64,000 nucleotides of DNA from a virus (Duplodnaviria; Caudoviricetes), in the IMG/VR virus record IMGVR_UViG_2974688470_000001, positions 6,993 through 70,992 of that record. One strand, written 5' to 3'. Made by a program: the position numbers and the translations under genes. Position 1 is the stretch's first letter, and the number at the start of each line of letters is the position of its first letter. Below the pieces are notes generated by a model. That model did not search any database, was not told where the DNA came from, and saw nothing but the letters and a program-made list of their open reading frames with translations. Below are positions 35,104 through 63,822 of the stretch, in pieces.

Positions 35104-35143
35104 CCGGCGGGGCGATCCCGCCTACTCCTCTGAAGATACCCGA
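35104..35143 (-). repeat. 40-bp promoter/hairpin cassette, copy 1
   Basis: CCGGCGGGGCGATCCCGCCTACTCCTCTGAAGATACCCGA. Confidence 0.95.
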
Positions 35144-35185
35144 CTAAGGAGGGATTCACACCCCCGCCTGATACCGTGTGATGGC

Positions 35186-36841
35186 GTGAGCTTCGTGCAG
35201 AAGAACGCGACCCCTCTGGACACCGAGGAGAACATCGCTCGGCGGGTCCACGCGGTCAGCATCAAGCGCGGCCAGAAGAACCCCGAGCTGGCCTCGGTCA
35301 TCACCCTGATGGGCATCCGCCAGGAGAGCGACTTCTGGTGCCCTTGGAACCGCAAAGACCCCAGCTCGGAGAAGTACGACCACGACTCCGAGAGCGATGA
35401 CGGCCGCAGCGTCGGCTATCTCCAGCAGCAGAACGGCCGGGCGGGCGAGGTGCTCCCGCCCGGCGACCGCGACAACTGGTGGGGGTCGATGGCCCAGCGC
35501 ATGGGCCTGGAGAGCGCCGTCGATACGTTCCAAGATCGGATGTCGGAGGATTACCAGAAGGTCTCCGAGCCGTGGGGCGCGAACGCCATCATCCAGCGCG
35601 TCCAGGGCAGCGGCGTTCCCGACGCCTACGCCAAGCACTGGGACTACTGCTGGAGCCTGCTCCGGCGCGCCCTGGCCACCAGCCCGACGCCGCTGCCGCC
35701 CCTGGTGCCCTCGCCGGTCAAGCCAGCGCCGACTCAGCCGCCCGCCCCGGTCATCCAGCCCAACCCCGGCCACCGCGGCGATCCGCTCTACCTGCCCGAG
35801 CTGCTCCGCGCGTTCGGCGTGAGCGTGAGCACCTACACCGACCAGGAGGGCATCCCCTGGGATCAGCGCGGGCACGGCGACTTCGGGGTCATCGACTATG
35901 TGGTCTGGCACCACACCGGCTCGGTCAACGAGACCGACGTGGGCATCGCCCATCACCCTGCGCTGGGCCTGGCCGCGACGATGCTCGTCCATGAGGACGG
36001 CCATGTCGTGCTCACCGGCTCGGGCATCGCCTGGCACGCGGGCGACGGCATCTGGCCGGGCGTGGCGCGCGGCGCGATGAACCAACGCTCCATCGGCATC
36101 GAGTGCGCCTACAGCTGGGGTCCGCAGGAGCTTCACAACCCCTGGCCACCCGAGCAGCTCCAGGCCATGATCAACATCGGCGGGGCGATCTCCTGGTATC
36201 TCCAGGGCACGCTCCCGCCCGACCACCAGATTGCCCACAAGGAGTGGGCCGGGGCCGAGAACCCGCTGGGCATCAACGCCCAGGGCAAGCCAGACCCCGC
36301 CAACCTCGACATGGATTGGTTCCGTGGCGAGATCGCCAAGCGTGCCGCAGCCGGGCCATCCGGCGGCGGCTCCACAACCGAGGAGGGGTTCCTGATGGGC
36401 CTATCGCAAGAGGACCAGATCGCCATCCGCGACAAGATTCTGGGCTACCCGAGCCTGGACCACGGCTGGCCGAGCCGGTCGATCTTCGCGCGCGGGCCGG
36501 GCAAGGTGGACGACACCGTGGGCATCCTGCTGTTCACCGATGGCAATGCGTTCAACCTCAACGTCATCCTGGGCGCGATGGCCGGGTTCGAGCCGTTCGC
36601 CGAGGACGTGCGCCGGGTCGCCGAGCATGGCCCGGCCGAGGGCACGTTCGCCGCCGAGCACTACCCCGAGGACGCCAAGGCCATCGCCCAGGCGTTCGTG
36701 CCGCTGATCGGGACGCTGCCCCAGCTGATGGCGCTCGCCACCGGCCCTCGCGGCGATCTCACCGGCCCGGCTCCGGCGAAGAAGGCCGCGCCCAAGAAGC
36801 GCGCCAAGAAGGCCGCGCCGACCGGCGAGGTGACTGAGTGA
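35186..36841 (+). CDS. Lysin A (endolysin with amidase-2 domain)
   Basis: WHHTG, WHAG, SIGIEC, AHKEW and GKPDP amidase motifs after a Pro-rich linker; GTG 35186 preceded by TACCGT. Confidence 0.9.
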   Translation: MSFVQKNATPLDTEENIARRVHAVSIKRGQKNPELASVITLMGIRQESDFWCPWNRKDPSSEKYDHDSESDDGRSVGYLQQQNGRAGEVLPPGDRDNWWGSMAQRMGLESAVDTFQDRMSEDYQKVSEPWGANAIIQRVQGSGVPDAYAKHWDYCWSLLRRALATSPTPLPPLVPSPVKPAPTQPPAPVIQPNPGHRGDPLYLPELLRAFGVSVSTYTDQEGIPWDQRGHGDFGVIDYVVWHHTGSVNETDVGIAHHPALGLAATMLVHEDGHVVLTGSGIAWHAGDGIWPGVARGAMNQRSIGIECAYSWGPQELHNPWPPEQLQAMINIGGAISWYLQGTLPPDHQIAHKEWAGAENPLGINAQGKPDPANLDMDWFRGEIAKRAAAGPSGGGSTTEEGFLMGLSQEDQIAIRDKILGYPSLDHGWPSRSIFARGPGKVDDTVGILLFTDGNAFNLNVILGAMAGFEPFAEDVRRVAEHGPAEGTFAAEHYPEDAKAIAQAFVPLIGTLPQLMALATGPRGDLTGPAPAKKAAPKKRAKKAAPTGEVTE

Positions 36842-38202
36842 CCGCGCCAGCTCCGGCCTGGCACCCGCCCAACACGGTGGGCGACATCGACCCCAACATC
36901 GTCAAGGCCAAGCAATACCTCCGGCGGTTCTCCTACGGCCAGCCCGCCAACGACGGCACCCCGCTCTACACCGAGGCGTTCGGCGAGGCGCTGCGCACGT
37001 TCCAGTCCAAGCGCAACGACGAGATCGCTCGCGGGGCCAAGCCAGGGCCGAGGATGAACCGGCCCGGCTGGCTCGACTACGACACCAAGGTCCAGCTGGA
37101 GATCGAGCCGCGCGCTGGCGGCGCGAACCCGCCTCCGCCGCACCTGGTCACCGACAGCCATTTCCTGAGCGCGCCCGGCTCCGGCGTGGACTGGTGGGTC
37201 GGCCCGCCGTTCAACATGGGCGAGTGGCTCAAGGACAACGCCGGGGTCCATCACTGGCCCTGCGGCTACCCCAAGGGCGGCTACCTCGGCCTGATGGGCG
37301 GCGACTCCGGCCAGAGCTATATCGACACCATCGCCCTGGAGGCCGTCGAGTTCGAGCGGCGCATCCGCGAGGACATCCTGCCGGGCTATGGCGTGAAGCT
37401 CCAGCCCGGCCAGGCGATCACCGACGCCCAGGTGGCCTCGCTCCCGGCCTCGTTCAAGCTGATGCCCTGCGGCTACAGCCAGAGCGCGGACGGCATCATC
37501 CAGGCGTGCGCCAAGCTGTTCGGCGAGGGCGGCGTGTTCGAGGCGCTCCGGCCCAAGCTGGTCGGCATCGTGGCGTTCGGCAATCCGGCGCGCCAGGGCG
37601 GGCCGACCCGGTACGGGCGCAATCCCAAGGGCAAGGGCATCAGCGGCTATGTCGCGCCGCCCTGGCTGGCCGCGCTCATCATCGACATCGTTACCGAGAC
37701 CCCGACCGCGCCGGACTTCTATGCGTGCAACACCTCCGAGATCGCCGCGATTGCCTACGACATCGTGGTGCGGGCGGAGACCCAGCTGCCGTTCATCGTC
37801 TACCTGGGCAAGGTCATCATCCCGACCCTGCTCAAGGTGGTGACCGGCGCTGGCGGGCTGCTGGGCGGCGGCGGTGGCGGGCTGTTCGGCGGGCTGAGTG
37901 GCCTCCTGGGGAACGCGGCCACCATCCCGCTCCTCTCGGGCCTCACCGGCCTGAGCGGCGGGCAGCTGGTGCCGATCGTCAACGCGGCTCAGACCGACGA
38001 CGGCGAGGCCGACGCGGTGGCGGCGCGCATCGCGGCCAAGCTGAGCCTGATGGGCATCGTGATGGCGGTGCCCGAGCTGATCGGGCTGCTGATGGCGCTG
38101 CCGGGCATCCAGACCCACGGCCTCTACGAGCAGCCACAGCCGGAGTTCGGCGGGCTGAGCGGGGTCCAGGTGGCGCTCAATCTCGCGCGTCCGCTCCTGT
38201 AG
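36838..38202 (+). CDS. Lysin B (cutinase-like esterase)
   Basis: Follows lysin A; N-terminal peptidoglycan-binding-like region; GYSQS elbow, FGNPAR, DFYA. Confidence 0.85.
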   Translation: MTAPAPAWHPPNTVGDIDPNIVKAKQYLRRFSYGQPANDGTPLYTEAFGEALRTFQSKRNDEIARGAKPGPRMNRPGWLDYDTKVQLEIEPRAGGANPPPPHLVTDSHFLSAPGSGVDWWVGPPFNMGEWLKDNAGVHHWPCGYPKGGYLGLMGGDSGQSYIDTIALEAVEFERRIREDILPGYGVKLQPGQAITDAQVASLPASFKLMPCGYSQSADGIIQACAKLFGEGGVFEALRPKLVGIVAFGNPARQGGPTRYGRNPKGKGISGYVAPPWLAALIIDIVTETPTAPDFYACNTSEIAAIAYDIVVRAETQLPFIVYLGKVIIPTLLKVVTGAGGLLGGGGGGLFGGLSGLLGNAATIPLLSGLTGLSGGQLVPIVNAAQTDDGEADAVAARIAAKLSLMGIVMAVPELIGLLMALPGIQTHGLYEQPQPEFGGLSGVQVALNLARPLL

Positions 38203-38246
38203 GCGCTATTCTGGCCCCAGCCTTCATGGTTGTGGGCGCAGAGAGC

Positions 38247-38280
38247 GAGGCCCCGGCGAGAGCGATCTCACCGGGGCCTC
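38247..38280. terminator. Hairpin between convergent lysis and replication blocks
   Basis: GAGGCCCCGG...CCGGGGCCTC stem with inner GAGA-GCGA-TCTC. Confidence 0.7.
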
Positions 38281-38296
38281 GTCCTATCTCAGGGGC

Positions 38297-38926
38297 CTAC
38301 CCCTGGGCCTTGCGCCACTCCTGGAACAGGGACTTGTCCTCCTCGTCGGCCGCGACCAGGATGACCGGCGGCGACTGACCCTGCTTCTTCTGGCCGAGGG
38401 TGATCCGGCCCAGCACCCAGGCGGTGCCGTTGTCCAGGGCCTTCTTGCCCTCGCGGACCAACGGCTTGTTGAAGATCAGCACGTCGTCAATCCGCTCGCC
38501 CACCTCATACGCCTCGAACGTCTCGACATCGCCGTCCTTGTTCAGCACGGTGACGTTGCCCTCGGCGTCCTTGGTGGCGGGGTTGCGCGTCGGCGCGCCC
38601 TCCTCGGGAACCGTGAGCGGGATGATGTCGAACCGGACGTACTCGCTCTGCGGGTTCTCCGGCGTGTTCGAGCTGGTCTTCATCCACCCGGTCTCGGTGG
38701 CGTGCATGAGGACCAGCTGGCCCATGAACGAGCCGGGCTTGTAGCCGCTGACCCCGGTGGGATCGCCGACGTTACCGAACGGATCGCCCTTGGCCTTGAC
38801 GGTCTGCGCGGGCGCGCCGTCCTCGGACCCCGCGTTGGTGACCTCATCGGGGAGGGCATCGCGCTTGGAGGCGGCGGGCTTGGTGGCGGTGGCAGCGCCA
38901 CCCTTGTTGAACGGTGAACCGGCCAT
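38297..38926 (-). CDS. Hypothetical replication-block protein (possibly ssDNA-binding)
   Basis: AAGGAGG RBS; beta-rich; function inferred from position only. Confidence 0.65.
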   Translation of the reverse strand: MAGSPFNKGGAATATKPAASKRDALPDEVTNAGSEDGAPAQTVKAKGDPFGNVGDPTGVSGYKPGSFMGQLVLMHATETGWMKTSSNTPENPQSEYVRFDIIPLTVPEEGAPTRNPATKDAEGNVTVLNKDGDVETFEAYEVGERIDDVLIFNKPLVREGKKALDNGTAWVLGRITLGQKKQGQSPPVILVAADEEDKSLFQEWRKAQG

Positions 38927-39029
38927 ATCGGTCGGCCTCCTTCTTGTGTTGTGCGCGTGCGGGTTTGCGTGCGCGTTTTCTGTGATCGGGCGTGATGCCG
39001 CGCTCCCGAGGAGCCGCCAGCCCGAGGGA

Positions 39030-40388
39030 CTACTGATCGAGCAGCGCGGCCACTCGCTCCGCGTGCTCCCCGAGGGCGTCGTCCCAAACGTCCTCGTAGC
39101 TCTCGTACACCGCCTGGCCCTCCTCCAGGCTGGTGATGGCGCTCAGCTCGGCGAACGCGGTGGAGTACCGGATCGTGTCCTCGCTGGGCACCGGGATGGC
39201 GTGCTTGGGCACCTCGACCTTGGCCTCCTTGCGGCGGCGGCGGGCCTCCAGGCTGGCCACCATCGTCTCCGCGCCCCAGGTCAGGTCGATGGTGATGGCG
39301 GCGGCGTGCTCGGGCTGATCGCTGGGGATGTGGAGGAGCACGGCGAAGTCGTCGCGGATGTCGGGGAACGGCTCCCAGCTCTTGCCGTCCGCGCTGAGCA
39401 CCTTGGTGGCCCAGCCGTAGACCCCGCCCACCTGGACGCCATAGCTCAGCCAGCTGTACTGGAGGTCTTTGTTCGTCTTGACATCGAGGAGCACCAGCTC
39501 GCCGGTCTCGACCAGCCGCCCCACGCCGTCGATCTTCCCGGCCACGGTCTCCTCGCCCTGGTCGTTGAGGATGGTCCGCTCGGTGTACTCGGGGAGCACC
39601 ACGATGCCGCGGTGAGCCAGCACGCGCATCCCGTTCTCGACGTGCGGCCGGACGATCTGCGGCACCTGGCCCAGGAGCACCGCCCCGGCATGGATCGCGC
39701 CGAGCCAGGCGTGAGCGCACTCGCCCAGCTCGCGGGCGTAGGCCCCGCCCATGAGGTTGTCGATCACATCGAGGGTGTTGTCCAGCTCGGTGACCTTGGG
39801 CGCGGCCAGCGCCTTCTCCAGGGCGTCCATCGCCTCGCCCGCCGTGGTGCCGGTCGGCTCATGGATCACCTGGTCGGGGTCGATCCTGGCCAGCTCCAGC
39901 ACGCGCTTGGCGGTCTCGCGGCGCTTCCAGCGGTTGAGGCCGTAGGTCTCATCGAGGGTGTCGGCGATGGTCGTGGCGCGCGGGAACCCGGTGGTCACCC
40001 CGGTCGTCGGAGCCGGGAGCTGATACCACCCCCAGCCGTTGTGCTTGGAGATCGGCCGGTCCAGATCGGGCGGCAGCGGGAACCGCTCCCATTGCGTGGT
40101 GCGGGGAGCTGGCTCGAAGTCATCGGTCAGCGCGGTCATATGGGCCTCCTGCGGTTGTGAGATGGCCTCCGGCGGCGCTGGTGCCGCCGGAGGGGAGATC
40201 GGCGCTCCTGGAGGCGCTGAGCCTGCCGGGAGGGGCGCTGGCGCGCCAGGGGCGCGATAGCTCGGGTCGGCCTGGTCGAGGTTGGGACTCCAGCCGTCCT
40301 GAGCGCCCTTGCCCGAGCGGTACCAGATCGTGCCGTCTGGCTGGCGGCGGGCCGGATACATCTCGGCCACGGTGAGCTGGCGGGCCAT
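39030..40388 (-). CDS. PD-(D/E)XK exonuclease (Cas4/RecB-like family)
   Basis: GECAH, E...AGKID...LLDVKT and Q...Y motifs; alternative start near 40139. Confidence 0.8.
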   Translation of the reverse strand: MARQLTVAEMYPARRQPDGTIWYRSGKGAQDGWSPNLDQADPSYRAPGAPAPLPAGSAPPGAPISPPAAPAPPEAISQPQEAHMTALTDDFEPAPRTTQWERFPLPPDLDRPISKHNGWGWYQLPAPTTGVTTGFPRATTIADTLDETYGLNRWKRRETAKRVLELARIDPDQVIHEPTGTTAGEAMDALEKALAAPKVTELDNTLDVIDNLMGGAYARELGECAHAWLGAIHAGAVLLGQVPQIVRPHVENGMRVLAHRGIVVLPEYTERTILNDQGEETVAGKIDGVGRLVETGELVLLDVKTNKDLQYSWLSYGVQVGGVYGWATKVLSADGKSWEPFPDIRDDFAVLLHIPSDQPEHAAAITIDLTWGAETMVASLEARRRRKEAKVEVPKHAIPVPSEDTIRYSTAFAELSAITSLEEGQAVYESYEDVWDDALGEHAERVAALLDQ

Positions 40389-40711
40389 CACTCGGCCGTC
40401 CTGATGCGCACCCACTCGTCGGCCTCGGAGCTGCGGCAGGAGAACATCCCGTCGAGGTCCGGCTCGTTCCACATGATCAGCCGCGCGTAGAAGGCGGCGA
40501 AGTTGTTGTTGATCTTGTACTCATCGCCCACGGTGGTCATGGCGATCTCCCAGCGGGCGCGCTCGAACAGCTGCTGGACGCCGCACCGCTCGCGGCCGGT
40601 GGCGCGCCAGGCGCGGGCCATCTGGACGAGCACGTCGTAGACCTTGGGGTTGGCGTCATGGAACCGCTCGAACGCCTGGGCAATCGGCCCCAGCTGCTCC
40701 TCGGCGCTCAC
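40388..40711 (-). CDS. Hypothetical protein
   Basis: FERFH..NP..Y...KINNN..AFYARL; overlap-coupled. Confidence 0.7.
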   Translation of the reverse strand: MSAEEQLGPIAQAFERFHDANPKVYDVLVQMARAWRATGRERCGVQQLFERARWEIAMTTVGDEYKINNNFAAFYARLIMWNEPDLDGMFSCRSSEADEWVRIRTAE

Positions 40712-40896
40712 CAGACCATCTCCTGGCACTCGCACCCCTGGACGCGGCACTCGCGGCTGTAGCGGTGATCTGAGCGGAAGTGGCCGCAGCCGCCCTCCTT
40801 GGAGTCGCAGACGTTGTGGGCGCTGCGCTTGGGCTTGGGCGCGGCCGAGCTGACGCCGTGGTAAGCGCCAGCCCGGCTCGGGGTCTTGATCGACAT
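40708..40896 (-). CDS. Small Cys/His-rich protein
   Basis: C...CGH...H...C....C.C; coupled to helicase stop. Confidence 0.65.
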   Translation of the reverse strand: MSIKTPSRAGAYHGVSSAAPKPKRSAHNVCDSKEGGCGHFRSDHRYSRECRVQGCECQEMVW

Positions 40897-42611
40897 CAGT
40901 TCTCGATCCCCCGGTCGAGCACCTTGCTGGCGAGCTTGACGCTGATCTCGTCGCTCAGCCGGGCCTTGGTCATGTTGTCGAAGTCCACGATCTTCAGCTG
41001 GCGCGCAAACCGCTTCTGCGCCTCGCTGGGCGGCTGATTGCGCCGCCACGACTGATTGCGGCTCGGGAGCTGCTGATCGCTTTCCACGATCCAGACCTCG
41101 GCTGCCTCCAGCGCCGCCGGGAGGTCGGTGTAATCCGGCCCCTCCTGGCTGACGTAGCGCCCCGAGGCGGTGACCCAGCCGCCCTTGCCCGAGCGGGTGT
41201 TGATCTGGCCGACCGCCCAGCGGGTCTCGGTGATGATCTCGCCATCCGCGCCAGCGCGGCCGGGACGCCAGCCATCCTCGGGCCAGACGAACACCACCTC
41301 GCCGTTCTCCATCAGGTTGATGAAGGGCACGCCCTTGGTGGTCTCCAGCCAGAGGGTGTCGTCGTTGGCCAGGAGGTCGATGGTGACCATATCGACCGGC
41401 CCCTGGCGCACCAGCTTGATCTCCGGCTCGCCGCCGAGGTCGATCTCCGGCTCGATCTCCGGCTCCAGCTCGACGCCCGCCTCGTCCACGTCCTTGGTGT
41501 CGGCACCGGGGAGGAGCTGGGTCAGGGTGACCAGCTTCATCTGGCGCGCCGAGCCAGCGAGATCGAGCACCAGGGCGTCGGACTTGCCCTCGTAGAGCCG
41601 GAGCGCGCGGCCGACCATCTGGCTGTAGAGGTTCTTGGAGCGCGTCGGCCGGGCCAGCACCACGGTGTCGCACATCGGGAAGTCAGCGCCCTCGGTGAGC
41701 ACCTGGACGGTGACCAGGGCGCGGGCCTCGCCGGAGCGGAACGCGGCGTAGACCGGCTGGCGGTCGGCATAGCTCATCGAGCCGGTCACCGCGACGGCCG
41801 GGTAGTCGGCCTCGGTCAGCGCCTCGGCGATGTGATGGGCGGCGTCCACGCTGGCGGCGAAGATGATCGGCTGGCGATCCGAGGCGTGGAGCTTGATGGC
41901 GTCCACGACGTACTCGGTCGCCGCCTCCATCACCTCGGCCAGCTCGCCCTGGTGGAAGTCTCCGGCGACGTTGCGCACGTCATCGAGGGCGTTGAGGCCC
42001 TTGATCCGAACGGTGAGGCCCCGAGGCTCGACCAGGAACCCCTTGCGGATGGCCCACTTGATGTCCTTCTCGTAGGCGATGCTCTCGATGACATCGCCCA
42101 GGCCGATCACGCCGCGCTGGTCGCGGTACATGGTCGCGGTGAACCCGGCCATCAGCGCATGGTCATAGCCGCCCAGCTCGGAGAACGTGGTGTGGAACCC
42201 CTCGGCTCCGGCGTGGTGGACCTCATCCCAGTAGATGCGCGTGCGGCGTCCGAGCGCCTCGCGGCGATGAGCGGTGGCGAGGGTCTGGAGGGTGGCGAAC
42301 ACGATCGGGCAATGGTGGTCGTCCTCCTCGGCCCGCACGATGCCGATGTCGGCCAGCGGGATGGTGGGATCGACCGCGAGCAGATCGCGCTTCATCTGGT
42401 CGAGCAGCTCGCCGCGATGGGCCAGCGCCACGACCGGCTCTCCGGCCCGGTAATCGCGGCGGATGCGCTCGCCGATCACGGTGGACTTGCCGGAGCCGGT
42501 CGGGAGGACGACGCCAGTGCGGCGCTTGCCCTTGGCCCACTCGCGCTCGACGGCATCGGCGGCGGCGAGCTGATAATCGCGCAGCTCGCGTGGGGCGATG
42601 GAGGTGGTCAT
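40896..42611 (-). CDS. Superfamily 2 DNA helicase
   Basis: LRDYQ, PTGSGKS, DEVHH, TAT and QMVGRALR motifs. Confidence 0.93.
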   Translation of the reverse strand: MTTSIAPRELRDYQLAAADAVEREWAKGKRRTGVVLPTGSGKSTVIGERIRRDYRAGEPVVALAHRGELLDQMKRDLLAVDPTIPLADIGIVRAEEDDHHCPIVFATLQTLATAHRREALGRRTRIYWDEVHHAGAEGFHTTFSELGGYDHALMAGFTATMYRDQRGVIGLGDVIESIAYEKDIKWAIRKGFLVEPRGLTVRIKGLNALDDVRNVAGDFHQGELAEVMEAATEYVVDAIKLHASDRQPIIFAASVDAAHHIAEALTEADYPAVAVTGSMSYADRQPVYAAFRSGEARALVTVQVLTEGADFPMCDTVVLARPTRSKNLYSQMVGRALRLYEGKSDALVLDLAGSARQMKLVTLTQLLPGADTKDVDEAGVELEPEIEPEIDLGGEPEIKLVRQGPVDMVTIDLLANDDTLWLETTKGVPFINLMENGEVVFVWPEDGWRPGRAGADGEIITETRWAVGQINTRSGKGGWVTASGRYVSQEGPDYTDLPAALEAAEVWIVESDQQLPSRNQSWRRNQPPSEAQKRFARQLKIVDFDNMTKARLSDEISVKLASKVLDRGIEN

Positions 42612-42730
42612 GGTTCCTGCCTTGGAGGTTTGCGTGTGCGTGTGGAGGTGCTGGTGGCCGGTCGGGCGGGGTCGCCGCCCGGCCGGATCGCACCAATCTA
42701 TCACAAGTTCCCCGAGAGGGGAGGGTTTCA

Positions 42731-56421: not shown

Positions 56422-56425
56422 CAGC

Positions 56426-56760: not shown

Positions 56761-56990
56761 CAGGCCACCCCGAGCTGGTGCTGGGCCTCGCGGAGCGCCT
56801 GGGCGCTCTTGAGCAGGTTCGCCGCTCCGTCCACCCCGAACTCGCCGACCAGCGCGGCCACCGCGGCGTCAGCGGCCAGCTCGGTGGCGCGCTCGATCCG
56901 GCCCAGGGTCTCCTGGAACTCGGCCACCGTCCCGGCGATGTCCATGTCGGCTGCCTGCTTGGCGTTCTTCAGTCCGTCGATCAAGCTCAC
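56760..56990 (-). CDS. Hypothetical helical protein
   Basis: GGAGG RBS; GTG overlapping upstream stop. Confidence 0.65.
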   Translation of the reverse strand: MSLIDGLKNAKQAADMDIAGTVAEFQETLGRIERATELAADAAVAALVGEFGVDGAANLLKSAQALREAQHQLGVA

Positions 56991-57280
56991 GTCTCGTACC
57001 TCCCCTTGCTGGTGATCGGCAGGCCATTGCGGCGCAGCCGAGCGATGTCGTTGGCGAACGCCCTGCGGTCTGAAGGCGTGCCAGCGATCCCGCCGATGTA
57101 CTCGCCATCGACGTAGACCTTGAAGTGGCCCGGCCTGCCCTGGTGAGGCCGGACCTCGCCGCCCGCGCGCTCGATCTCGCGGAGCAGGCGGCGGGTTTCC
57201 TTGCGAGCCGCTCGCTTGCGGCACCCCGACCCCGGCACTGGAGTGCTGGGGCCGGGGCCGGGTTCATCGCGCAGCGCCAT
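56987..57280 (-). CDS. HicA-like toxin/RNase
   Basis: LLREIERAG.EV...GHFKVY...GTPSDRRA..N..A.LRR.G pattern; start uncertain. Confidence 0.65.
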   Translation of the reverse strand: MALRDEPGPGPSTPVPGSGCRKRAARKETRRLLREIERAGGEVRPHQGRPGHFKVYVDGEYIGGIAGTPSDRRAFANDIARLRRNGLPITSKGRYET

Positions 57281-57283
57281 CGC

Positions 57284-57601
57284 TCAGCACCAGAAGGCGT
57301 CGGCGTGGCGCAGGATGGTGAGCTGCTCTCCGGCGGGCATGTAGTCCAGATACCCCTTCAGATCGCGGAGCTGCTGGGCCTCCAGCTTCATCACGAACAC
57401 ATCGCGCAGGAGGTTGATCGAGGCGCTCAGCCCGGTGCGCACGTTGCGCGCGTCGATGACCGCGTAGGTCTCCACCGAGCGCACGGTGCGCAGCCCGGTG
57501 ACCTCGTAGACATCGGTGGACTGATCCAGCCCGCCCATGCCTCGGGTGAACCGGAACAGATCGCCCTCGGCGAGGTCTCCGGCGTGAATCTTCTCGGCCA
57601 T
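57284..57601 (-). CDS. Hypothetical protein
   Basis: AAGGAG RBS after 17-bp hairpin. Confidence 0.75.
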   Translation of the reverse strand: MAEKIHAGDLAEGDLFRFTRGMGGLDQSTDVYEVTGLRTVRSVETYAVIDARNVRTGLSASINLLRDVFVMKLEAQQLRDLKGYLDYMPAGEQLTILRHADAFWC

Positions 57602-57616
57602 CTCTGGCTCCTTCCC

Positions 57617-57633
57617 GGCGGGGCGATCCCGCC
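57617..57633 (-). repeat. 17-bp hairpin core (stand-alone copy)
   Basis: GGCGGGGCGATCCCGCC. Confidence 0.9.
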
Positions 57634-57648
57634 TGTCGATGATGGGTT

Positions 57649-57903
57649 CTACAGCTCGCCGCGCTCGACCATCTGGCCCAGCGTGTCGAGGTACTCGGTC
57701 AGCCAATCGCCCAGCTCGGCGGGGTTCTCCGCCTCGGCGTAGACCTGGCCCTGGCTGTCGGCGAGCACCCACCGGCCCGCTCCGGCGAACACGATGCTCA
57801 TCACGTTGGCGGTCTCGTCGGCGATCATCGCCTCGGGGATGGTCGGGAGGGTGACACCCGGCCCGCCCTCGGCGGCGTAGCGGGCGCTGTAGTGGCTGAA
57901 CAT
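57649..57903 (-). CDS. Hypothetical protein
   Basis: AGGAG RBS after cassette. Confidence 0.75.
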   Translation of the reverse strand: MFSHYSARYAAEGGPGVTLPTIPEAMIADETANVMSIVFAGAGRWVLADSQGQVYAEAENPAELGDWLTEYLDTLGQMVERGEL

Positions 57904-57918
57904 GATCTTGGCTCCTAT

Positions 57919-57958
57919 CCGGCGGGGCGATCCCGCCTACTCCTCTGAAGATACCCGA
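57919..57958 (-). repeat. 40-bp promoter/hairpin cassette, copy 2
   Basis: Identical to 35104-35143. Confidence 0.95.
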
Positions 57959-57990
57959 CTTCTACGGGGAACACACTCCCGATTGGCGGA

Positions 57991-58341
57991 TCAGCTCCAC
58001 CAGATCGGGGTCGAGTGCGCCCGCGCCCACAGCGCCAGCTCATGGAGCTGGGCCAGGCGGTCCTGGAGGTATCCCGGCCGACGTGCGCCCTCGATCATGC
58101 GCGCGCCGGGACCGGCCACCTCGAACGAGGGCATACCCTCGTCGGCCGGGCTGACGGCCAGCGCCATCAGCACGCGACCGAGGAACGCCTCGGCGTCCAT
58201 CTCGCCGCACCAGTCGGGGTCCAGCGAGAACCCGAGCGCCTCGGCCACGCGGGCGGCGTTGGAGTTGGACATATTCACGTCCAGCTCGCCGAACCCGTCC
58301 TCGTCCTGCGGCACTCCGGCGGCGGTGAAGGTGACGCTCAT
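57991..58341 (-). CDS. Hypothetical protein
   Basis: GAGGAG RBS; NMSNSNA..V...LG motif. Confidence 0.75.
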   Translation of the reverse strand: MSVTFTAAGVPQDEDGFGELDVNMSNSNAARVAEALGFSLDPDWCGEMDAEAFLGRVLMALAVSPADEGMPSFEVAGPGARMIEGARRPGYLQDRLAQLHELALWARAHSTPIWWS

Positions 58342-58358
58342 GGTGATCTCCTCTCGGC

Positions 58359-58375
58359 GGCGGGGCGATCCCGCC
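58359..58375 (-). repeat. 17-bp hairpin core (stand-alone copy)
   Basis: GGCGGGGCGATCCCGCC. Confidence 0.9.
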
Positions 58376-58386
58376 TGGTCGGGTTG

Positions 58387-58474
58387 AGCAAGGAGGCGGA
58401 GCCTTGAACGCTCGCGGCTGGAACGAATGCAGGCCCGGTCGTTGCGCCAGTTGAGTTACCCCGCGCTCCTTGCT
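58387..58474 (-). ncRNA. Candidate structured small RNA or leader
   Basis: Starts just after a TATATT -10; ends pair (AGCAAGGAG/CTCCTTGCT); inner stems; no credible ORF. Confidence 0.45.
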
Positions 58475-58519
58475 GAGATCGAATATACCCGACATGGGAG
58501 GGGAACACACGTCGGATCG

Positions 58520-58735
58520 CTACTTCTGCGTGACCAGCCTGATGCGCCCGCCCTGAGCTGGGACGACGTGCTTGCGGACCCGGCCGTCAGCGCGCGGGGC
58601 CAGGCTCCGGTGGCAGACCGGGCACTCCGCCCGCTCCAGGCTGGTGCGCTCCCCGAGCGGGGTTCTCCAGCGCCGAGGCAGCGCCGCCCGGCCAGAGCCA
58701 GGGCAGCGCCGCCGGGCGCGCTCAGTAGGGGCCAT
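58520..58735 (-). CDS. Small zinc-ribbon-like protein
   Basis: CPGSG...CPVC...H. Confidence 0.55.
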   Translation of the reverse strand: MAPTERARRRCPGSGRAALPRRWRTPLGERTSLERAECPVCHRSLAPRADGRVRKHVVPAQGGRIRLVTQK

Positions 58736-59006
58736 CGCCGGGGCGGATGGCGCGGATGGGCATCGGATCGGCGTCGGAGCCAGGCGGCTCCTCGGCCTCG
58801 GCGGCGCGGCAATCGCTGCTCATGCACGTCGAGAGGTGCCAGGCGGCTGGGAGCGTGCCGCCATCGGAGAGCCAGCCATGCAGGGCCAGCACCAGGTCGG
58901 CCATCCGGCCGGTGTCGGCGTGATTGCTCCGGCTCTCGTCATCGACCTCGGCCTGGTGCTCGCGCGCGATGTCGAGCAGCTCCAGGAGGTTGGCGTCGGG
59001 GTCCAT
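58722..59006 (-). CDS. Hypothetical protein
   Basis: TGATG coupling; MDPDANL...LHGWLSDGG.LP.AW. Confidence 0.7.
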   Translation of the reverse strand: MDPDANLLELLDIAREHQAEVDDESRSNHADTGRMADLVLALHGWLSDGGTLPAAWHLSTCMSSDCRAAEAEEPPGSDADPMPIRAIRPGDGPY

Positions 59007-59236
59007 CAGCCCACCTCCACCCAGCTCGCGGCCACGCGCAGGAGGTTCTCGTAGTCGCCGCTCATCGACTCGGCGAGGTAGGCGTCCAGCTCCTCCTTGG
59101 AGGCCCCGGCCTCGCGCAGGGCGCGCTGGACCAGGCCCATGACCATGAAGGCGTTGCCGTCCTGGCCGGTCAGCTGGACATAGACGTGGGGATACTTCGG
59201 CCCTGGCTGGGCCTCGGTGACGGGTTGATCTGTCAT
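59006..59236 (-). CDS. Conserved phage hypothetical protein
   Basis: AAGGAG RBS; LTGQDGNAF...SGDYENLL. Confidence 0.75.
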   Translation of the reverse strand: MTDQPVTEAQPGPKYPHVYVQLTGQDGNAFMVMGLVQRALREAGASKEELDAYLAESMSGDYENLLRVAASWVEVG

Positions 59237-59336
59237 GCTGGGGTGCTCCTTCTGGAGAGGTTGTGGTGGCGGAGATGGGTGTGGAGGCCCGGCGGCAGAT
59301 GGGTCTGACACTGCCCGCCGCCGGGCCTCTCAGGGT

Positions 59337-59795
59337 CTAGCTGTACCCGCCCTGGGTGAAGGGCGTCACCGTGTCCACGGTCTGGGTATCGAGCACCCGG
59401 CCGTAGCGACCCATCCGCTCGGCGACCGGCGGCTCCGCGCCGGGCGGGAGCAGCGGATGGCCCATGTTCATCAGGAACAGGGTGGGCCAGTTCGCCTCGC
59501 CGACGAACGAGAGGAACCCGGCCCAGTTGAACCGGCGCGCCTCGTTCCCGGTGACGGCCACGCGGATGTTGCGCCCCTGGCGGAACACCACGGCGGCGTA
59601 GACGTAGGCCCGGCCGGACTGATACCGCTCGAACCCGAGGATGGCGCTCTCGCCGTCCTCCAGCGTCGGGCACTTGGGCCTGGACGCCTCCAGCTCGGCG
59701 GCGGTGGCCGCAGCCGCGTCCCGAGCCAGCTGCTCGGCGATCTCGCGGGCGCGAGCCGCCTCCTCTCTGAGCTTGGCGGCGGTGATGACGGTCAT
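59337..59795 (-). CDS. Hypothetical protein
   Basis: AAGGAG RBS. Confidence 0.75.
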   Translation of the reverse strand: MTVITAAKLREEAARAREIAEQLARDAAAATAAELEASRPKCPTLEDGESAILGFERYQSGRAYVYAAVVFRQGRNIRVAVTGNEARRFNWAGFLSFVGEANWPTLFLMNMGHPLLPPGAEPPVAERMGRYGRVLDTQTVDTVTPFTQGGYS

Positions 59796-59871
59796 GGTGA
59801 TCTCCTTCTCTGGGTTGTGGATGGTTGGCCCGCCCTGGGCCATCTGAGCGCCAGGGCGGGCCGGGTCCGAG

Positions 59872-60915
59872 CTAGTTGGCGGCTGCCAACAGCTGCTCGG
59901 CGGTCATCGGCAGCGCCTCCTTGAGCGCCACCGCGGCGCGCCCCTTCAGCTGGGCCACCTCGGGCGAGAGGATCGAGCGCAGCGCGCGCTTGCCCGCCTG
60001 ATCGCCCTTGCCGAGCACCGGCATGAAGTGATCGGCGTACTCGGTCACCGCGTTGTAGGCGGCGTAGGCGGTGCCCTCGAACGGCGCGATGGAGGGCGAG
60101 ACCCTCATCAGCTCCATCACCTTGGACACCGTGCCCACGCGGCTGTTGCGCGCACGATCGCTCTCGGCCTTGCTCACGCCGAACACGTCGTTGAGCACCG
60201 CGCGGGTCCACGCCTCGTCGCGCTCGGCCTTGACCAACGCCTCCATCTCGGCGGCGTAGGTGTCGATGTAGCGGAACGTGATCCCGAGCAGGCGGCGAAC
60301 CTCCTCCATCTTGACCTCCATCTCGCCGGTATGGCGCAGGCCCACCGTCGAGACCGCCTGCTGCTCAGCCAGACGCTGGGTGTTGGCGCACACGATCCGC
60401 ACCGGGCTGATCATGGCGCGGAGCTTGCCCTGGCCATCGTGGTTGTTGAGCACCGCGAGATACATCTCGGTCTTGTCGGTGAACCCGCCCGCCCCGGTGA
60501 ACTCCACATGGGTCGGCATCAGCATCGTCACGAACGTCTCCCGGCCACCGCGCAGCGCGCCGATGGTCTGGATGTGCGCCCCGCTCTGGTCGGTGATGTC
60601 GTAGAGGAGCTGGGTGCTGCGCTCGTTCTGGGTCGGCTGGAAGAACCGGCCGACCGTGGCCAGCGGCTCGGGCTTGCCGGTCCAGGGGTTGTCGCGGATG
60701 ACCACGAACTGGCCCTCCAGCGGCGCGATGGAGCCGTCCGGCAGCTGGACCATCAGCGGCTCCTTGCGCACGTTCCAGCCCAGCATGTGGGCGGCGCTCA
60801 GGGCCTCCTCCGGCTCCATCTCCCGGCCGACCTGCTGGCCCAGCTGGTGCCAGGCATCCTCGCGGCTATCGGCGAAAGCGAACTCGGTTCCGTTGTTGTC
60901 GATCAAGTGGCCCAT
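59872..60915 (-). CDS. DUF932-family protein
   Basis: AWHQLG, NNHDG, PVRIVCANT, LRHT and YNAVTEYADH motifs. Confidence 0.85.
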   Translation of the reverse strand: MGHLIDNNGTEFAFADSREDAWHQLGQQVGREMEPEEALSAAHMLGWNVRKEPLMVQLPDGSIAPLEGQFVVIRDNPWTGKPEPLATVGRFFQPTQNERSTQLLYDITDQSGAHIQTIGALRGGRETFVTMLMPTHVEFTGAGGFTDKTEMYLAVLNNHDGQGKLRAMISPVRIVCANTQRLAEQQAVSTVGLRHTGEMEVKMEEVRRLLGITFRYIDTYAAEMEALVKAERDEAWTRAVLNDVFGVSKAESDRARNSRVGTVSKVMELMRVSPSIAPFEGTAYAAYNAVTEYADHFMPVLGKGDQAGKRALRSILSPEVAQLKGRAAVALKEALPMTAEQLLAAAN

Positions 60916-60982
60916 CTCGGGCCTCCTCTCATGGTTGTGATGGATGGCCGGGGCGGAAGTCCCGCCCCGGCCGGGGTCGATC

Positions 60983-61252
60983 TCAGGCGACGTGCTCGAA
61001 CAGCCAATCGGTCAGGGCGTCCTCCTCCTTCATCGAGATGTCGGCGCGGTGGACCACCAGGCGCTCGCCGGAGGCGATGGCGTGTCCCTTGACGAACACC
61101 GGGGTGATCTCGTCCCAGGCCACCGCGCCCATGCCCTGCTTGGCGGCGAAGCGGCTGGCCTCGATCATTCCGTTGAGCAGGCCCGCCTCGGCCTCGGCCT
61201 CGGGGGTGGCGAAGAAGGCTCCGTCTTTGTGGGCGATGTTGATGGCGATCAT
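60983..61252 (-). CDS. Hypothetical protein
   Basis: AAGGAG RBS after cassette. Confidence 0.75.
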   Translation of the reverse strand: MIAINIAHKDGAFFATPEAEAEAGLLNGMIEASRFAAKQGMGAVAWDEITPVFVKGHAIASGERLVVHRADISMKEEDALTDWLFEHVA

Positions 61253-61268
61253 GGTCCTGGCTCCTTGT

Positions 61269-61308
61269 CCGGCGGGGCGATCCCGCCTACTCCTCTGAAG
61301 ATACCCGA
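61269..61308 (-). repeat. 40-bp promoter/hairpin cassette, copy 3
   Basis: Identical to 35104-35143. Confidence 0.95.
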
Positions 61309-61332
61309 GGAGGGCGGGAAACACACGCCCAG

Positions 61333-61494
61333 CTAGAAAGTTCCCAGAAGATAGCCGACCGGGATGGCCAGAACAGGGGCGATGACCATCGTCGCCGCCG
61401 CCAGCTCGGCCACGCCGCCGCGCCTGGTGAAGTGGAGCCAGACGCACGCCAGGAGGCTGATCAGCAGGAGGGTGATCGGGCCGTCGAGGATCAC
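61333..61494 (-). CDS. Small two-helix membrane protein
   Basis: GGAGG RBS; GTGA overlap; hydrophobic. Confidence 0.6.
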   Translation of the reverse strand: MILDGPITLLLISLLACVWLHFTRRGGVAELAAATMVIAPVLAIPVGYLLGTF

Positions 61495-61904
61495 CGGGTC
61501 ACCTCCAGGGTCAGCCCGCCGTCGAGCATCTGGCGCAGCAGCTCGATCTGCCAGGGCGCGAACCCCTCCGAGGAGGCCAGGAGAGCCTCCAGGGCCTTCT
61601 CCCGGCGCAGCTGGGCCACCTGGGCGAGATCGCCCGCCAGGCGGGCCAGGAGCGCCCTCCTCGCGGCCGTCTCGCGGCGCTCCGAGGGGAGCGGTCCCAT
61701 GAGCGCCGCCAGCTCGCCGGGCTGCCAGCCGGTCCACCGGGCCACGCGCCGGGCGCGGAGCTTGTGGCGGATCGCCCAGCGGCGCTCGCTGGCCAGCCAG
61801 AGCATCCGAGGATGCTGGGAGCACTTCCACAGCCCGGCGTCGCAGAGGGCCTGGCGCGGATGGAGGAGCGGGAAGCTCGCGCGCTGGAGCCAGATCGGGG
61901 TCAT
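61491..61904 (-). CDS. Hypothetical protein
   Basis: ATGA overlap; fills gap. Confidence 0.6.
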   Translation of the reverse strand: MTPIWLQRASFPLLHPRQALCDAGLWKCSQHPRMLWLASERRWAIRHKLRARRVARWTGWQPGELAALMGPLPSERRETAARRALLARLAGDLAQVAQLRREKALEALLASSEGFAPWQIELLRQMLDGGLTLEVTR

Positions 61905-62284
61905 GGGAGCATCACCTCGAACTCCTCGCGGAACAGGCAGGTGCGCCCGCCGCCGACGTTGAACCGGATGCAGAAGATGGGTCGGCCCGAGCCGTTGTCC
62001 ATCTTGGTGGTGACCCGGCCTCGCGGGTCTTTCCGGCGATCCGCCAGGACCACCGCGATGTCGCCGGGCACCGGCTCGACGGTGCGCTCATTGCCCGCGA
62101 TGCGCAGCAGCGCGGCGTCCTGGCACTCGTCCTGGGCCTCGGCCTTGGTCTCATGGCGGGTGACCCCGCCCTCGATCCCAGGACCGCGGGCCACCCACCA
62201 CTTCCCTGCCTCGCCGCGCTCGACCCGCCAGGGTCCGGCGACGTAAGCCAGCTGGCCGTCCTTGCGCTCTCCGTGCCACTTCAT
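61901..62284 (-). CDS. Hypothetical protein
   Basis: ATGA overlap; codon bias. Confidence 0.7.
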   Translation of the reverse strand: MKWHGERKDGQLAYVAGPWRVERGEAGKWWVARGPGIEGGVTRHETKAEAQDECQDAALLRIAGNERTVEPVPGDIAVVLADRRKDPRGRVTTKMDNGSGRPIFCIRFNVGGGRTCLFREEFEVMLP

Positions 62285-62592
62285 CGCAGGCCCGCCAGTT
62301 CCAGCTCAAGGGCCTGGATCATCAGGCTGGCGTGGACGTGGCCGGGGTGCTTGCCGAGCACCTCGCGGTGGCGCTCCAGGAGGCCCTCCAGGCGGCGGCG
62401 CTCCAGCTCGACGGCCAGGGGCGGCGAGCAGATCGTGCATCGGGCGATGCTGTGGACCTTGCACGGTGCCTGGATGGCGGCGAGCAGCTCCTCGCGCTCC
62501 AGGCGGCAGTAGTAGCCGTCGCACTCGGGCTGGAGTTCGCCCAGCTCGGCGCAGATGTGCTCCGGCTGGTCGGCCGGGTCTCGATGGGACAT
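62281..62592 (-). CDS. Cys/His-rich hypothetical protein
   Basis: AAGGAG RBS. Confidence 0.65.
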   Translation of the reverse strand: MSHRDPADQPEHICAELGELQPECDGYYCRLEREELLAAIQAPCKVHSIARCTICSPPLAVELERRRLEGLLERHREVLGKHPGHVHASLMIQALELELAGLR

Positions 62593-62617
62593 GACGTGCT
62601 CCTTCGTGGTTGTGGGA

Positions 62618-62875
62618 TCAGAACGTCTTGACGATGGCGAACAGGGTGGGGCGGTCGTCGTCGCCGTCGAGGGCGTACCAGGCTGCCTCGATGAACTCGC
62701 CATCGAGGTCCATCTCCGCGCGGGCCTCGGCGAGGTCGCAATCGCGGACCTTGTGGCCCTCGACATCGCTGACGAACTCGTCGCGGAGCTTGCCCGCCAT
62801 GAAGGCGCTGTACTCGCGCCCGTAGCAGTTGAGGGCGTTGGTTCCCTCGTCCTGGACGGCGACGGTGAAGATCAT
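62618..62875 (-). CDS. Hypothetical acidic protein
   Basis: Follows cassette copy 4. Confidence 0.7.
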   Translation of the reverse strand: MIFTVAVQDEGTNALNCYGREYSAFMAGKLRDEFVSDVEGHKVRDCDLAEARAEMDLDGEFIEAAWYALDGDDDRPTLFAIVKTF

Positions 62876-62887
62876 GGCTCTCGCTTC

Positions 62888-62926
62888 CCGGCGGGGCGAT
62901 CCCGCCTACTCCTCTGAGAATACCGA
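62888..62926 (-). repeat. Promoter/hairpin cassette, copy 4 (variant -10)
   Basis: CCGGCGGGGCGATCCCGCCTACTCCTCTGAGAATACCGA. Confidence 0.9.
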
Positions 62927-62951
62927 CATGGGCGGGCAATTGCACGCCAGC

Positions 62952-62990
62952 TAGAAAAGAGACCCGGCCGGATCGCTCCGGCCGGGCCTC
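62952..62990 (-). terminator. Intrinsic terminator
   Basis: Minus strand CCCGGCCGGA-GCGA-TCCGGCCGGG followed by TCTCTTTTCT, right after stop codon at 62999. Confidence 0.8.
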
Positions 62991-62998
62991 GCGGCGAG

Positions 62999-63766
62999 CT
63001 AGGCGCTGGCCTTCTCGGCTGCCTTGGCCTGCTCCCACTCCACGCGCCGCTCCTCGACCTTGACCTCCAGGGCCTCGGCCTTGGCGATGTCGCCAGCCTC
63101 GCGCGCCGCCTTGGCCTGGATGCGGACCTCGCGCATCCGGCGGTAGGCGTTGTAGGCCGGGCCGGAGCCGCGCCAGACCTTCTTGCCCTCGGCGGTGATG
63201 GCCTTGACACCCTTGGGCTTGGCCGGGGCCTTGACCGCGACCAGCTCGACGCTGGGCACGTCCTCGATGGCCTTCTCGACCTTGGCCACGACCTCGGCCT
63301 CGCCGTTCTCGCGGGCCTTCTTGGCGGCGCGCTGGCGGCGGCGGTCGGCGGCAGCCTTGGCGCGCTTGGCAGCCTGGGCGTCCATCTCGGCCTGGATGGT
63401 GGCGTCGATGTCGTCCTGGCTCGGGACCGGGGCGCTCTCGACGCGGGCGTCCAGCGCCGCCTGGCTCGGCGATCCCGCCAGCTTGGCCTGGTAGACCGCC
63501 AGGAGGCGCTCCCGGTCGATGTCGCCCCAGCCGTGCTCGGCGATCTCGGCGACATCCTCGGCGGTGACCTTGCCGTTGACCGCGGTGGGGTAGACCGGGA
63601 TGACCTTGGTGCCCGGCGCGTGGTAGCGATCCGTCGCGGCCTTGTGGGCGGCGGCGAAGCTCTTGTGCCAGGTTCCGCCTGCGTAGGCGACGTAGGGCAT
63701 CGTTCCCGAGGTGCGGGTGACGGTTTCGCCCTCGGCGGTGATTCCGGTGAAGGTGATGGTGGCCAT
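62999..63766 (-). CDS. Ala/Lys-rich hypothetical protein
   Basis: GAGGAG RBS after cassette; internal repeat ITAEG(E/K). Confidence 0.75.
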   Translation of the reverse strand: MATITFTGITAEGETVTRTSGTMPYVAYAGGTWHKSFAAAHKAATDRYHAPGTKVIPVYPTAVNGKVTAEDVAEIAEHGWGDIDRERLLAVYQAKLAGSPSQAALDARVESAPVPSQDDIDATIQAEMDAQAAKRAKAAADRRRQRAAKKARENGEAEVVAKVEKAIEDVPSVELVAVKAPAKPKGVKAITAEGKKVWRGSGPAYNAYRRMREVRIQAKAAREAGDIAKAEALEVKVEERRVEWEQAKAAEKASA

Positions 63767-63782
63767 GTGATTCTCCTCTGTT

Positions 63783-63822
63783 CCGGCGGGCCGATCCCGC
63801 CTACTCCTCTGAAGATACCCGA
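63783..63822 (-). repeat. 40-bp promoter/hairpin cassette, copy 5 (one loop mismatch)
   Basis: CCGGCGGGCCGATCCCGCCTACTCCTCTGAAGATACCCGA. Confidence 0.95.

Follow-up and report, generated by a model that had tools for sequence, protein, structure and literature searches.

Why should one short sequence stand, almost unchanged, in front of many unrelated genes of a phage? The question is raised by a 64,000-nucleotide (nt) stretch of DNA, hereafter the window, which comprises bases 6993 to 70992 of a 70,992-bp virus record (IMGVR_UViG_2974688470_000001) and whose right end is the end of that record. The phage is a cluster B mycobacteriophage of the subfamily Bclasvirinae, and its nearest listed relatives fall in the genus Quesadillavirus. 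Over the last 9 kb, PenguinLover67 matches the window with 82.5% identity across 78% of the sequence, and CRB2 with 80.7% identity across 52%. Here, we describe a cassette in which a predicted promoter, a hairpin, and a Shine-Dalgarno (SD) sequence precede a start codon. We ask how widely it is shared, what its parts may do, and whether its copies help genes to move.

The repeat in this genome

A 37-nt string, GGTATCTTCAGAGGAGTAGGCGGGATCGCCCCGCCGG when read on the minus strand, occurs at 35104, 57919, and 61269 with no mismatch, at 63783 with one, and at 62888 with two (coordinates are those of the window unless another record is named). These five matches compare with an expectation of 0.00 from 100 shuffles and bear out the claim of a preliminary description that a near-identical string recurs at five sites. 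By alignment, the stretch that is identical in the first three copies is 41 nt long (35103-35143 for the first copy). The 17-nt hairpin occurs in eight copies with at most one mismatch, which lie on the minus strand throughout the whole genome; the 6,992 bases that precede the window contain none. Each of the eight is intergenic and stands 14 to 26 nt before a minus-strand ATG, with an SD-like run between. Two matches with two mismatches, at 37117 and 63463, were discounted because both lie within coding sequence. Behind the copies, the leading genes fall into different families (DUF6011, DUF7280, separate PHROGs, or none). The single orientation and the intergenic placement noted previously hold for all eight hairpins, and the downstream genes are unrelated, as noted. 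Several elements had been overlooked, namely exact hairpins without the promoter part of the 37-nt string, at 49772, 57617, and 58359, and promoter parts without an adjoining hairpin, at 12117-12145 and 58482-58510. Because the hairpin and promoter parts occur separately, the unit is modular.

A ninth GGCGGG-N5-CCCGCC, at 31602-31618, has a loop unlike the others and lies amid rightward structural genes. Counterparts occur at comparable places in the genomes of CRB2, Acadian, BirdsNest, Puhltonio, and Hosp; those of Acadian and BirdsNest have similar flanks, with no SD, start codon, or promoter alongside. This motif is probably coding sequence outside the cassette family. Rfam covariance models gave no match at the gathering score across the whole window, and between 57500 and 64000 they gave only a sub-threshold match to M23 (23 bits against 41.2, E 0.56).

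Conservation across Bclasvirinae

The cassette is present in 11 of 11 Bclasvirinae genomes, representing 10 genera. We defined it as GGCGGG-N5-CCCGCC on the sense strand, 9 to 15 nt behind a -10 hexamer and 12 to 27 nt before an SD-bearing start codon. Five of the eight hairpins in the window have all three features, and the other three have the hairpin together with the SD and start codon. Counted alone, GGCGGG-N5-CCCGCC occurs 9 times in this genome, 8 times each in PenguinLover67, CRB2, Saguaro, and Rosebush, 6 times each in Acadian and Hosp, 11 times each in BirdsNest and Puhltonio, 5 times in Nigel, and 13 times in Pipefish. The reversed pattern, which served as a control, is absent from ten genomes and occurs twice in Nigel. 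Furthermore, an 86-nt cassette from BirdsNest matches 370 phage records at 1352 places, and 367 of the 370 are Mycobacterium phages. An exact scan of a viral contig collection with a 27-nt core found a match in one contig only, and a 25-nt degenerate core found none in the metagenome contigs scanned.

For comparison among genomes, we assembled a rule-based set of 91 hairpins from the 11 genomes (no more than two mismatches in the stem, an A..G. loop, and an SD and start codon within 36 nt), which retains two probable chance matches inside genes and omits four Hosp cassettes whose loops begin with G. These hairpins head 44 first-gene families, 29 of them singletons. Certain families have their cassette at another place or on another strand from one genome to the next, with the caution that base 1 of these records is probably conventional, so that the "left end" and the "right end" may be contiguous. 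Other families have a cassette in only part of the genomes, the Hosp copies scored as not led being mostly cassettes omitted by the loop rule. With the sites lettered A to I from left to right, site B is found in 11 of 11 genomes, site C in nine, and site I in seven; judged from this distribution, all three are old. The cassette is not peculiar to accessory genes, to which it had initially been tied, as conserved operons follow these three sites in 7 to 11 of the 11 genomes.

The cassette has apparently gone undescribed in cluster B. We found no description of it in the literature, but subscription journals and bioRxiv supplements fell outside the search, so one may exist. The CRB2 paper makes no mention of promoter, repeat, stem, hairpin, or intergenic, and the accessible part of a B1 preprint, which predicts at least ten promoters in the right arm, nowhere mentions "stem." The B1 right arm also holds further short intergenic repeats (Puhltonio 61017-61099 and 61706-61787; PG1 61440-61524 and 62122-62201), which have 88 to 91% identity, occupy non-colinear positions, and are without a perfect GGCGGG-N5-CCCGCC.

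The promoter module

In most other genera, a canonical promoter of the form TTGACA-17-TANNNT ends 10 to 11 nt ahead of the hairpin, behind which come a GGAGG-like sequence and the start codon. Examples are TTGACT-17-TAACTT in BirdsNest, TTGACA-17-TAACTT in Puhltonio, TAGACT-17-TAATAT in Acadian, and TTGACA...TATTGT in Pipefish. Among the 91 hairpins, 72 have TANNNT ending 8 to 16 nt upstream, with a mode of 10 to 11 nt, compared with 33 of 5000 random positions. When at least four of the six bases of TTGACA are also required at a spacing of 16 to 19 nt, the counts become 55 of 91 and 6 of 5000. The association holds in the other direction as well, since a scan for the promoter motif alone found a hairpin behind five of five promoters in Acadian and nine of ten in BirdsNest. 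The tenth BirdsNest promoter is followed by GGCCGG-AGCGA-CCGGCC, a stem with compensated changes.

Aligned to these relatives, the TATCTT of our genome coincides with the -10 hexamer and its conserved GTGTGT or GTGCAA with the -35 hexamer. The -10 of all five full copies in the window fits TANNNT, and orthologous hexamers vary yet keep TA...T (TATCTT, TATATT, TAGCTT, TATTCT, and TAATTT), with TATAAA as the exception. The anatomy first proposed, in which a -10 (TATCTT or TATTCT) is followed by hairpin, SD, and ATG, was upheld; related genera have canonical SigA-type promoters in the same register. In the Quesadillavirus trio of this genome, CRB2, and PenguinLover67, the place of the -35 is taken by the conserved GTGTGT or GTGCAA, together with a CCCnCCC spacer that is likewise conserved.

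Site A offers a natural exchange. This genome and PenguinLover67 lack a 38-nt block of hairpin plus SD, and the ATG follows the -10 position after 6 nt. In CRB2, the whole cassette stands before the same gene, whose protein is 68% identical. The comparison shows that the hairpin-SD module can be exchanged for a predicted leaderless arrangement. Because the ATG is placed as in leaderless mycobacterial genes, site A also supports the position of the transcription start proposed below. The SD would form no part of the message there, and nothing at the remaining sites hints at transcription starting downstream of the hairpin.

In BirdsNest, the 17-nt spacers between -35 and -10 (for example, at record positions 10395 and 39267) carry a 16-nt element, CCCCGACTTCGGCAGG, in either orientation between cassettes. 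It contains the palindrome CCGAnnTCGG and may be an operator inside the promoter.

The hairpin as a probable RNA structure

Between orthologous sites the stem is preserved while the loop differs, reading ATCGC, ATCGG, AACGG, ATTGG, ACTGG, ACCGC, or ATGGC, and ACCGA in Acadian. In the 91-row alignment, both sides have changed at three of the six stem pairs, in four sequences, yielding the compensated stems GGCCGG/CCGGCC (twice), AGCGGG/CCCGCU, and GCCGGG/CCCGGC. Changes to G.U occur in three sequences. Six rows carry two stem changes; four of them are fully compensated, and the other two are the probable chance matches in coding sequence, without which unpaired cells are confined to the two outer pairs. 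The observed pairing values were reached in none of 500 shuffles. As judged from this covariation, pairing of the stem is under selection. In addition, the hairpins are oriented with the gene behind them, which in BirdsNest, Puhltonio, and Pipefish is true of copies pointing rightward as well. This consistency and the G.U cases point to pairing on the sense strand and hence in RNA.

Recombination among copies

The preliminary description had proposed that the repeats could let genes be gained, lost, or shuffled, and several patterns agree with exchange among copies. The clearest concerns a small transcription unit, unit F, which in this genome lies between a 71-amino-acid (aa) gene and cassette E, so that two promoter copies flank it. 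CRB2 lacks the unit and has at that place a single promoter, which aligns with both copies (positions 64977 and 65476 of our own genome against CRB2 66603 and 66569). In PenguinLover67, unit F, with its own promoter, sits directly upstream of cassette G. Among the 11 genomes, only this one and PenguinLover67 have the unit.

The copies have also been homogenized by conversion. In our genome, the 37-nt cores of cassettes B, E, and G are identical and that of I differs by one base, whereas the CRB2 and PenguinLover67 orthologs differ from these cores by 2 to 13 bases and among themselves by up to 16. PenguinLover67 has an identical pair of its own, at E and G. Site I keeps the G of its orthologs at the fifth loop position, and left of it carries the sequence common to this genome, a pattern expected if a conversion tract had stopped within the loop. 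The promoter at site E of PenguinLover67 is chimeric, with an H-type upstream half and an E-type downstream half. At site A, the 38-nt block is the unit of difference, present in CRB2 and absent from the other two.

Other candidate events were set aside. The published ~2-kb B1 "gene swap" (PMC3029335) has breakpoints at Puhltonio 56049 and 57366, ~650 nt or more from the nearest hairpin, and a second B1 right-arm indel (Puhltonio 65292-65450) lies outside cassettes. A divergent stretch behind cassette H, relative to CRB2, was dropped as a gene replacement because the proteins are homologous.

A model for the cassette

We consider it moderately probable that the cassette is a promoter for the host RNA polymerase whose transcript opens with a 5'-terminal hairpin directly before the ribosome-binding site (RBS), and that the copies recombine as homologous substrates. 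RNA polymerase with the primary sigma factor of the host would be directed by the -10 hexamer (TATCTT or TATTCT here) and start ~6 to 7 nt past it. Mycobacterial -10 elements lie at about -12 to -7; the start would therefore fall inside CAGAGGAGTA, with the hairpin beginning at about +5, and the mRNA would open, after ~4 free bases, with the 6-bp GC hairpin GGCGGG-AUCGC-CCCGCC. The SD would follow within a few bases of the hairpin and the start codon 14 to 20 nt past it (26 nt at site C). Such a 5'-terminal stem, whose action we place in the mRNA, would shield the message from 5'-end-dependent decay and would keep the context of the RBS fixed and open whatever gene comes next, thus insulating it. 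Where the hairpin stands between genes without a promoter, it may do the same job for processed or read-through message. The units would presumably be expressed early. Because about 40 to 75 nt are alike at many places, the copies would serve as substrates for homologous recombination, being homogenized by gene conversion while a flanked gene is occasionally inserted, lost, or moved.

A number of results weigh against this model. In the trio, none of 25 hairpins has a -35 with at least four of six bases of TTGACA, compared with 55 of 66 in the other eight genomes, and only 13 of the 25 have TANNNT at 8 to 16 nt. A strict sigma-70 scan found no promoter between 55000 and 64000. From these comparisons, the canonical -35 is decayed or lost in this genus, which may depend on an activator or on the -10 alone. 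The predicted energy of the hairpin (-12.7 to -14.0 kcal/mol, z -0.26 to -1.19) is not significantly lower than that of shuffled sequences, so the case for the hairpin rests on the comparative data. In the 91-hairpin set, moreover, the limit of two stem mismatches hides strongly divergent stems, and the filter for an A..G. loop with SD and start codon leans toward pairing. As for gene movement, the right arms of the trio have seven loci with breaks in colinear blastn matches, and only two, both involving unit F, are bounded by cassettes; the other five lie elsewhere, and all of these breakpoints are approximate, being blastn ends at 71 to 90% identity. For Puhltonio and PG1, two B1 phages that are nearly identical, neither of two rearrangements has its breakpoints in cassettes. 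The notion that recombination acts among the copies is thus partly supported. Unit F, the chimeric promoters, the homogenized copies, and the site A block argue that cassettes recombine and at least once moved a gene; with seven of nine larger rearrangements elsewhere, they are not the main place of mosaicism.

The conservation of the stem is harder to accommodate, as a generic stabilizer needs no fixed sequence and near-invariance across genera points to a specific reader. Since stabilization leaves the invariance unexplained, some probability falls to recognition of the element as RNA or as DNA. It is unlikely, in our judgment, that the hairpin is a specific RNA site for a phage or host protein or for RNA polymerase, comparable to the nut/boxB or put sites of lambdoid phages or to a translational operator, and coordinates the cassette-led units as one regulon. 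The stem is near-invariant in 75 of the 91 hairpins and across all genera examined, with drift in loop and flanks, and it occupies a fixed position near +5 of the predicted transcript, directly before the SD. Loops keep a purine first and mostly a G fourth, but the A..G. rule builds this conservation partly into the set. A strong terminator-like hairpin just upstream of cassette H would suit such a regulon. Yet the binding protein is hypothetical, the reader would have to tolerate four compensated stem variants, and no boxA-like partner was seen, though none was searched for. A related reading, which we also rate as unlikely, makes GGCGGG-RNNGN-CCCGCC, recognized at the 5' end of all cassette-led transcripts by a conserved phage or host factor or by RNA polymerase, both the RNA operator of a Bclasvirinae-wide regulon, switched by antitermination, timed decay, or translation control, and a landing pad for new genes through homologous recombination. 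Action as DNA seems quite unlikely. Here, the 17-bp palindrome would be an operator or "stoperator"-like roadblock spanning +5 to +21, and a dimeric phage regulator, such as one of the helix-turn-helix (HTH) proteins behind cassette B, would bind it and shut off all the leftward units together. Two 6-bp half-sites around a free 5-bp spacer have the geometry of a dimer operator, the site B operon, whose hairpin is present in all 11 genomes, codes for HTH_3/HTH_31-type and DNA-binding proteins, and precedents are described for the stoperators of cluster A and the 17-bp palindromes of cluster O (PMC3029335, PMC4351075). However, a compensated change at a single site with all others unchanged fits pairing rather than recognition by one protein, and three C-to-T changes leave a G.U pair on the sense strand but an A/C mismatch on the opposite one. 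Orientation follows gene direction, including copies facing rightward genes, and the tight link to the SD persists where no promoter is near.

Two further explanations are highly improbable. The stem-loop could be a terminator or attenuator of upstream transcription, as in the PeSL (promoter-early stem-loop) cassettes of T4-type phages, whose stem-loops are reported to terminate upstream transcription and in one subclass lie just behind the -10 (PMC2839356); the location of hairpin-only copies between genes would also suit this role. But there is no T-run, the stem has only 6 bp, and a terminator scan calls none of the eight copies while it does call the separate hairpin upstream of cassette H, which makes the role unlikely. 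A terminator behind its own promoter would, moreover, halt the transcripts of that promoter. It is equally doubtful that the promoters of this genus are read by SigF, with GGGTAT as the -10, instead of SigA. In favor of this, TCGGGTAT is conserved in most copies here, the M. smegmatis consensus is given as GTTT-N15-17-GGGTA (bioRxiv 10.1101/2020.01.15.907535; listed promoters in PMC5445863), and GTGT lies 16 nt upstream of GGGTAT. Against it, the existing GTTT is only 12 nt from GGGTAT, type-2 copies read CGGTAT, and homologous cassettes elsewhere have a canonical TTGACA-17-TAAnTT, with Pipefish and Rosebush lacking any GGGTA.

Individual sites and gene layout

All sites lie on the minus strand. 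Cassette I (63764-63840) heads the first leftward unit at the right genome end. Its promoter module (63812-63840, -10 TATCTT) is followed by the hairpin at 63785-63801 (loop ATCGG), the SD GAGGAG, and the ATG at 63766-63764 of a 255-aa gene (62999-63766). Cassette H (62873-62950) has a variant promoter, in which GTGCAA is separated by 17 nt from TATTCT, a hairpin at 62890-62906, and an ATG at 62875-62873 opening an 85-aa gene (62618-62875). Directly upstream of it, at 62959-62990 on the same strand, a 14-bp GC stem is followed by TTTTCT. This sequence is kept in CRB2 and PenguinLover67 and looks like an intrinsic terminator, in which case the H unit would be a module bounded by terminator and promoter. 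In cassette G (61250-61326), the promoter module at 61298-61326, the hairpin at 61271-61287, and the SD AAGGAG lead to an ATG at 61252-61250 and an 89-aa DUF7280 gene (60983-61252).

The movable unit F (57991-58510) begins with a promoter module at 58482-58510 (-10 TATATT), continues through a structured leader of ~105 nt to a hairpin at 58359-58375 and an ATG at 58341-58339, and encodes a 116-aa protein that belongs to no known family (57991-58341); downstream, the unit is bordered by the promoter of cassette E. The leader (58376-58481) has a long-range helix, and the 142-nt stretch 58339-58480 folds at -58.6 kcal/mol (z -1.97). The inner arm of the helix reads CGCGGGG/CTCCGC here and CGAGGC/GCCTCG in PenguinLover67, with pairing kept. 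Although the leader matches no Rfam family, it may be a regulatory 5' leader.

Cassette E (57901-57976) comprises a promoter module at 57948-57976, a hairpin at 57921-57937, the SD GGATAGGAGCC, and the ATG (57903-57901) of an 84-aa gene (57649-57903). Site D (57599-57633) is a hairpin without a promoter (57617-57633) that begins 15 nt past the stop codon of the 84-aa gene and precedes the SD GGAAGGAG and the ATG at 57601-57599 of a 105-aa gene. Site C (49743-49840), with its hairpin at 49772-49788, extra flanking pairs, a different candidate -10 (TATAAC), and an ATG at 49745-49743, heads a leftward operon that runs into DNA replication genes. Cassette B (35083-35161) has its promoter module at 35133-35161, its hairpin at 35106-35122, the SD ATAGGAG, and an ATG at 35085-35083; a 195-aa DUF6011 gene comes first and two HTH/DNA-binding genes follow. 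Site A (12108-12145) is a promoter module only, with TTTAAT at the -10 position. Because the ATG (12110-12108) comes six nt behind it, the leftward DUF6884 gene (11625-12110), which lies within the rightward structural module, is predicted to be leaderless. Beyond the stop codon of that gene lies a GC-rich terminator-like hairpin of ~14 bp.

The gene layout, taken from third-position GC frame analysis and from the annotation of relatives, consists of rightward structural and lysis genes broken up by leftward blocks at 11625-12110, 33535-35085, 38297-50248, and 55565-63766. The plus-strand gene at 51842-52561 is homologous to a gene annotated as RNase E in relatives and matches PHROG 645, which bears that name. 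In Pfam, the sole hit of its product is HTH_23, below threshold, and an RNase E domain is lacking, so that the annotation of its homologs looks doubtful, and on the same ground a link between the cassette and a phage RNase E was dropped.

Implications for cluster B phages

With more than 350 sequenced genomes (PMC9262239), cluster B ranks among the largest mycobacteriophage groups. Almost no work has addressed how its genes are regulated. One compact cassette seems to head most leftward transcription units, which yields a testable map of transcription starts as well as natural promoter, 5' untranslated region, and RBS parts for Mycobacterium genetics. The cassette is also a test case for why one hairpin sequence persists at the 5' end of many messages, how gene conversion keeps dispersed regulatory copies alike, and how often such copies mediate the gain, loss, and movement of genes in phages without an integrase. 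If the hairpin were a specific RNA operator, hundreds of phages would have a regulon in common.

Comparison with known systems

Bacterial mRNAs such as ompA carry 5'-terminal stabilizer stem-loops, that is, a stable hairpin near the 5' end and upstream of the RBS. Those stabilizers belong to single genes, whereas in the phages studied here one hairpin stands at many promoters, is conserved across a subfamily, and has a stabilizing role that is predicted.

Among mycobacteriophages, cluster O is similar in having several predicted leftward promoters in the right arm, some of them for leaderless genes, and a 17-bp dyad-symmetric repeat at many intergenic sites, where deletions were attributed to recombination between copies (PMC4351075). 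That repeat, however, is TGTTCGG-N3-CCGAACA, has more than 30 copies, lies mostly away from promoters, and was proposed by its authors to bind protein as DNA. The start-associated sequences (SAS) and extended SAS (ESAS) of cluster K (PMC3203893, PMC11373665) come nearer. The current reading of ESAS (PMC11373665) is that of promoters whose inverted repeat precedes a conserved RBS element. Like the cassette, they join a SigA-like promoter in one orientation, an inverted repeat, and a conserved ribosome-binding region in intergenic DNA, upstream of nonstructural genes of different families. They differ in being a ~46-bp motif whose imperfect arms of 15 to 17 nt overlap the promoter, and for which the authors found no support for RNA pairing; our cassette has 6-nt arms and a 5-nt loop behind the -10, with compensated changes. 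The cluster K SAS itself is described as a 13-nt sequence, GGGATAGGAGCCC, lying 3 to 9 nt before many start codons. In the window, it has one match with at most two mismatches (57909-57921) against 3.36 expected, and membership was rejected because matches fall below chance expectation.

SAS and PeSL had both been named as analogs at the outset. As architectural analogs they stand, and the cassette belongs to neither family. With the PeSL cassettes of phages RB49 and phi1, as described in PMC2839356, ours has in common a repeated intergenic layout of promoter (in our case a predicted one of host type), GC-rich stem-loop, SD, and start codon, placed before small genes whose function is unknown. 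The topology reported for RB49 ORF192 (PMC2839356), in which two copies flank a gene and a relative has a single copy, is also that of unit F, the one such unit here. There is no sequence relationship, however, and hosts and phage groups differ. The stem-loop of our cassette lies ~10 nt behind the -10 and would hence be transcribed, is near-fixed in sequence, and has no T-run; none of its eight copies is called by the terminator scan, so that the terminator character of PeSL stem-loops is probably missing. Copies number 5 to 13 per genome rather than the roughly 50 described for T4-type phages, and only some rearrangements involve them. By analogy, and without homology, PeSL is the closest functional counterpart of the cassette among these systems.

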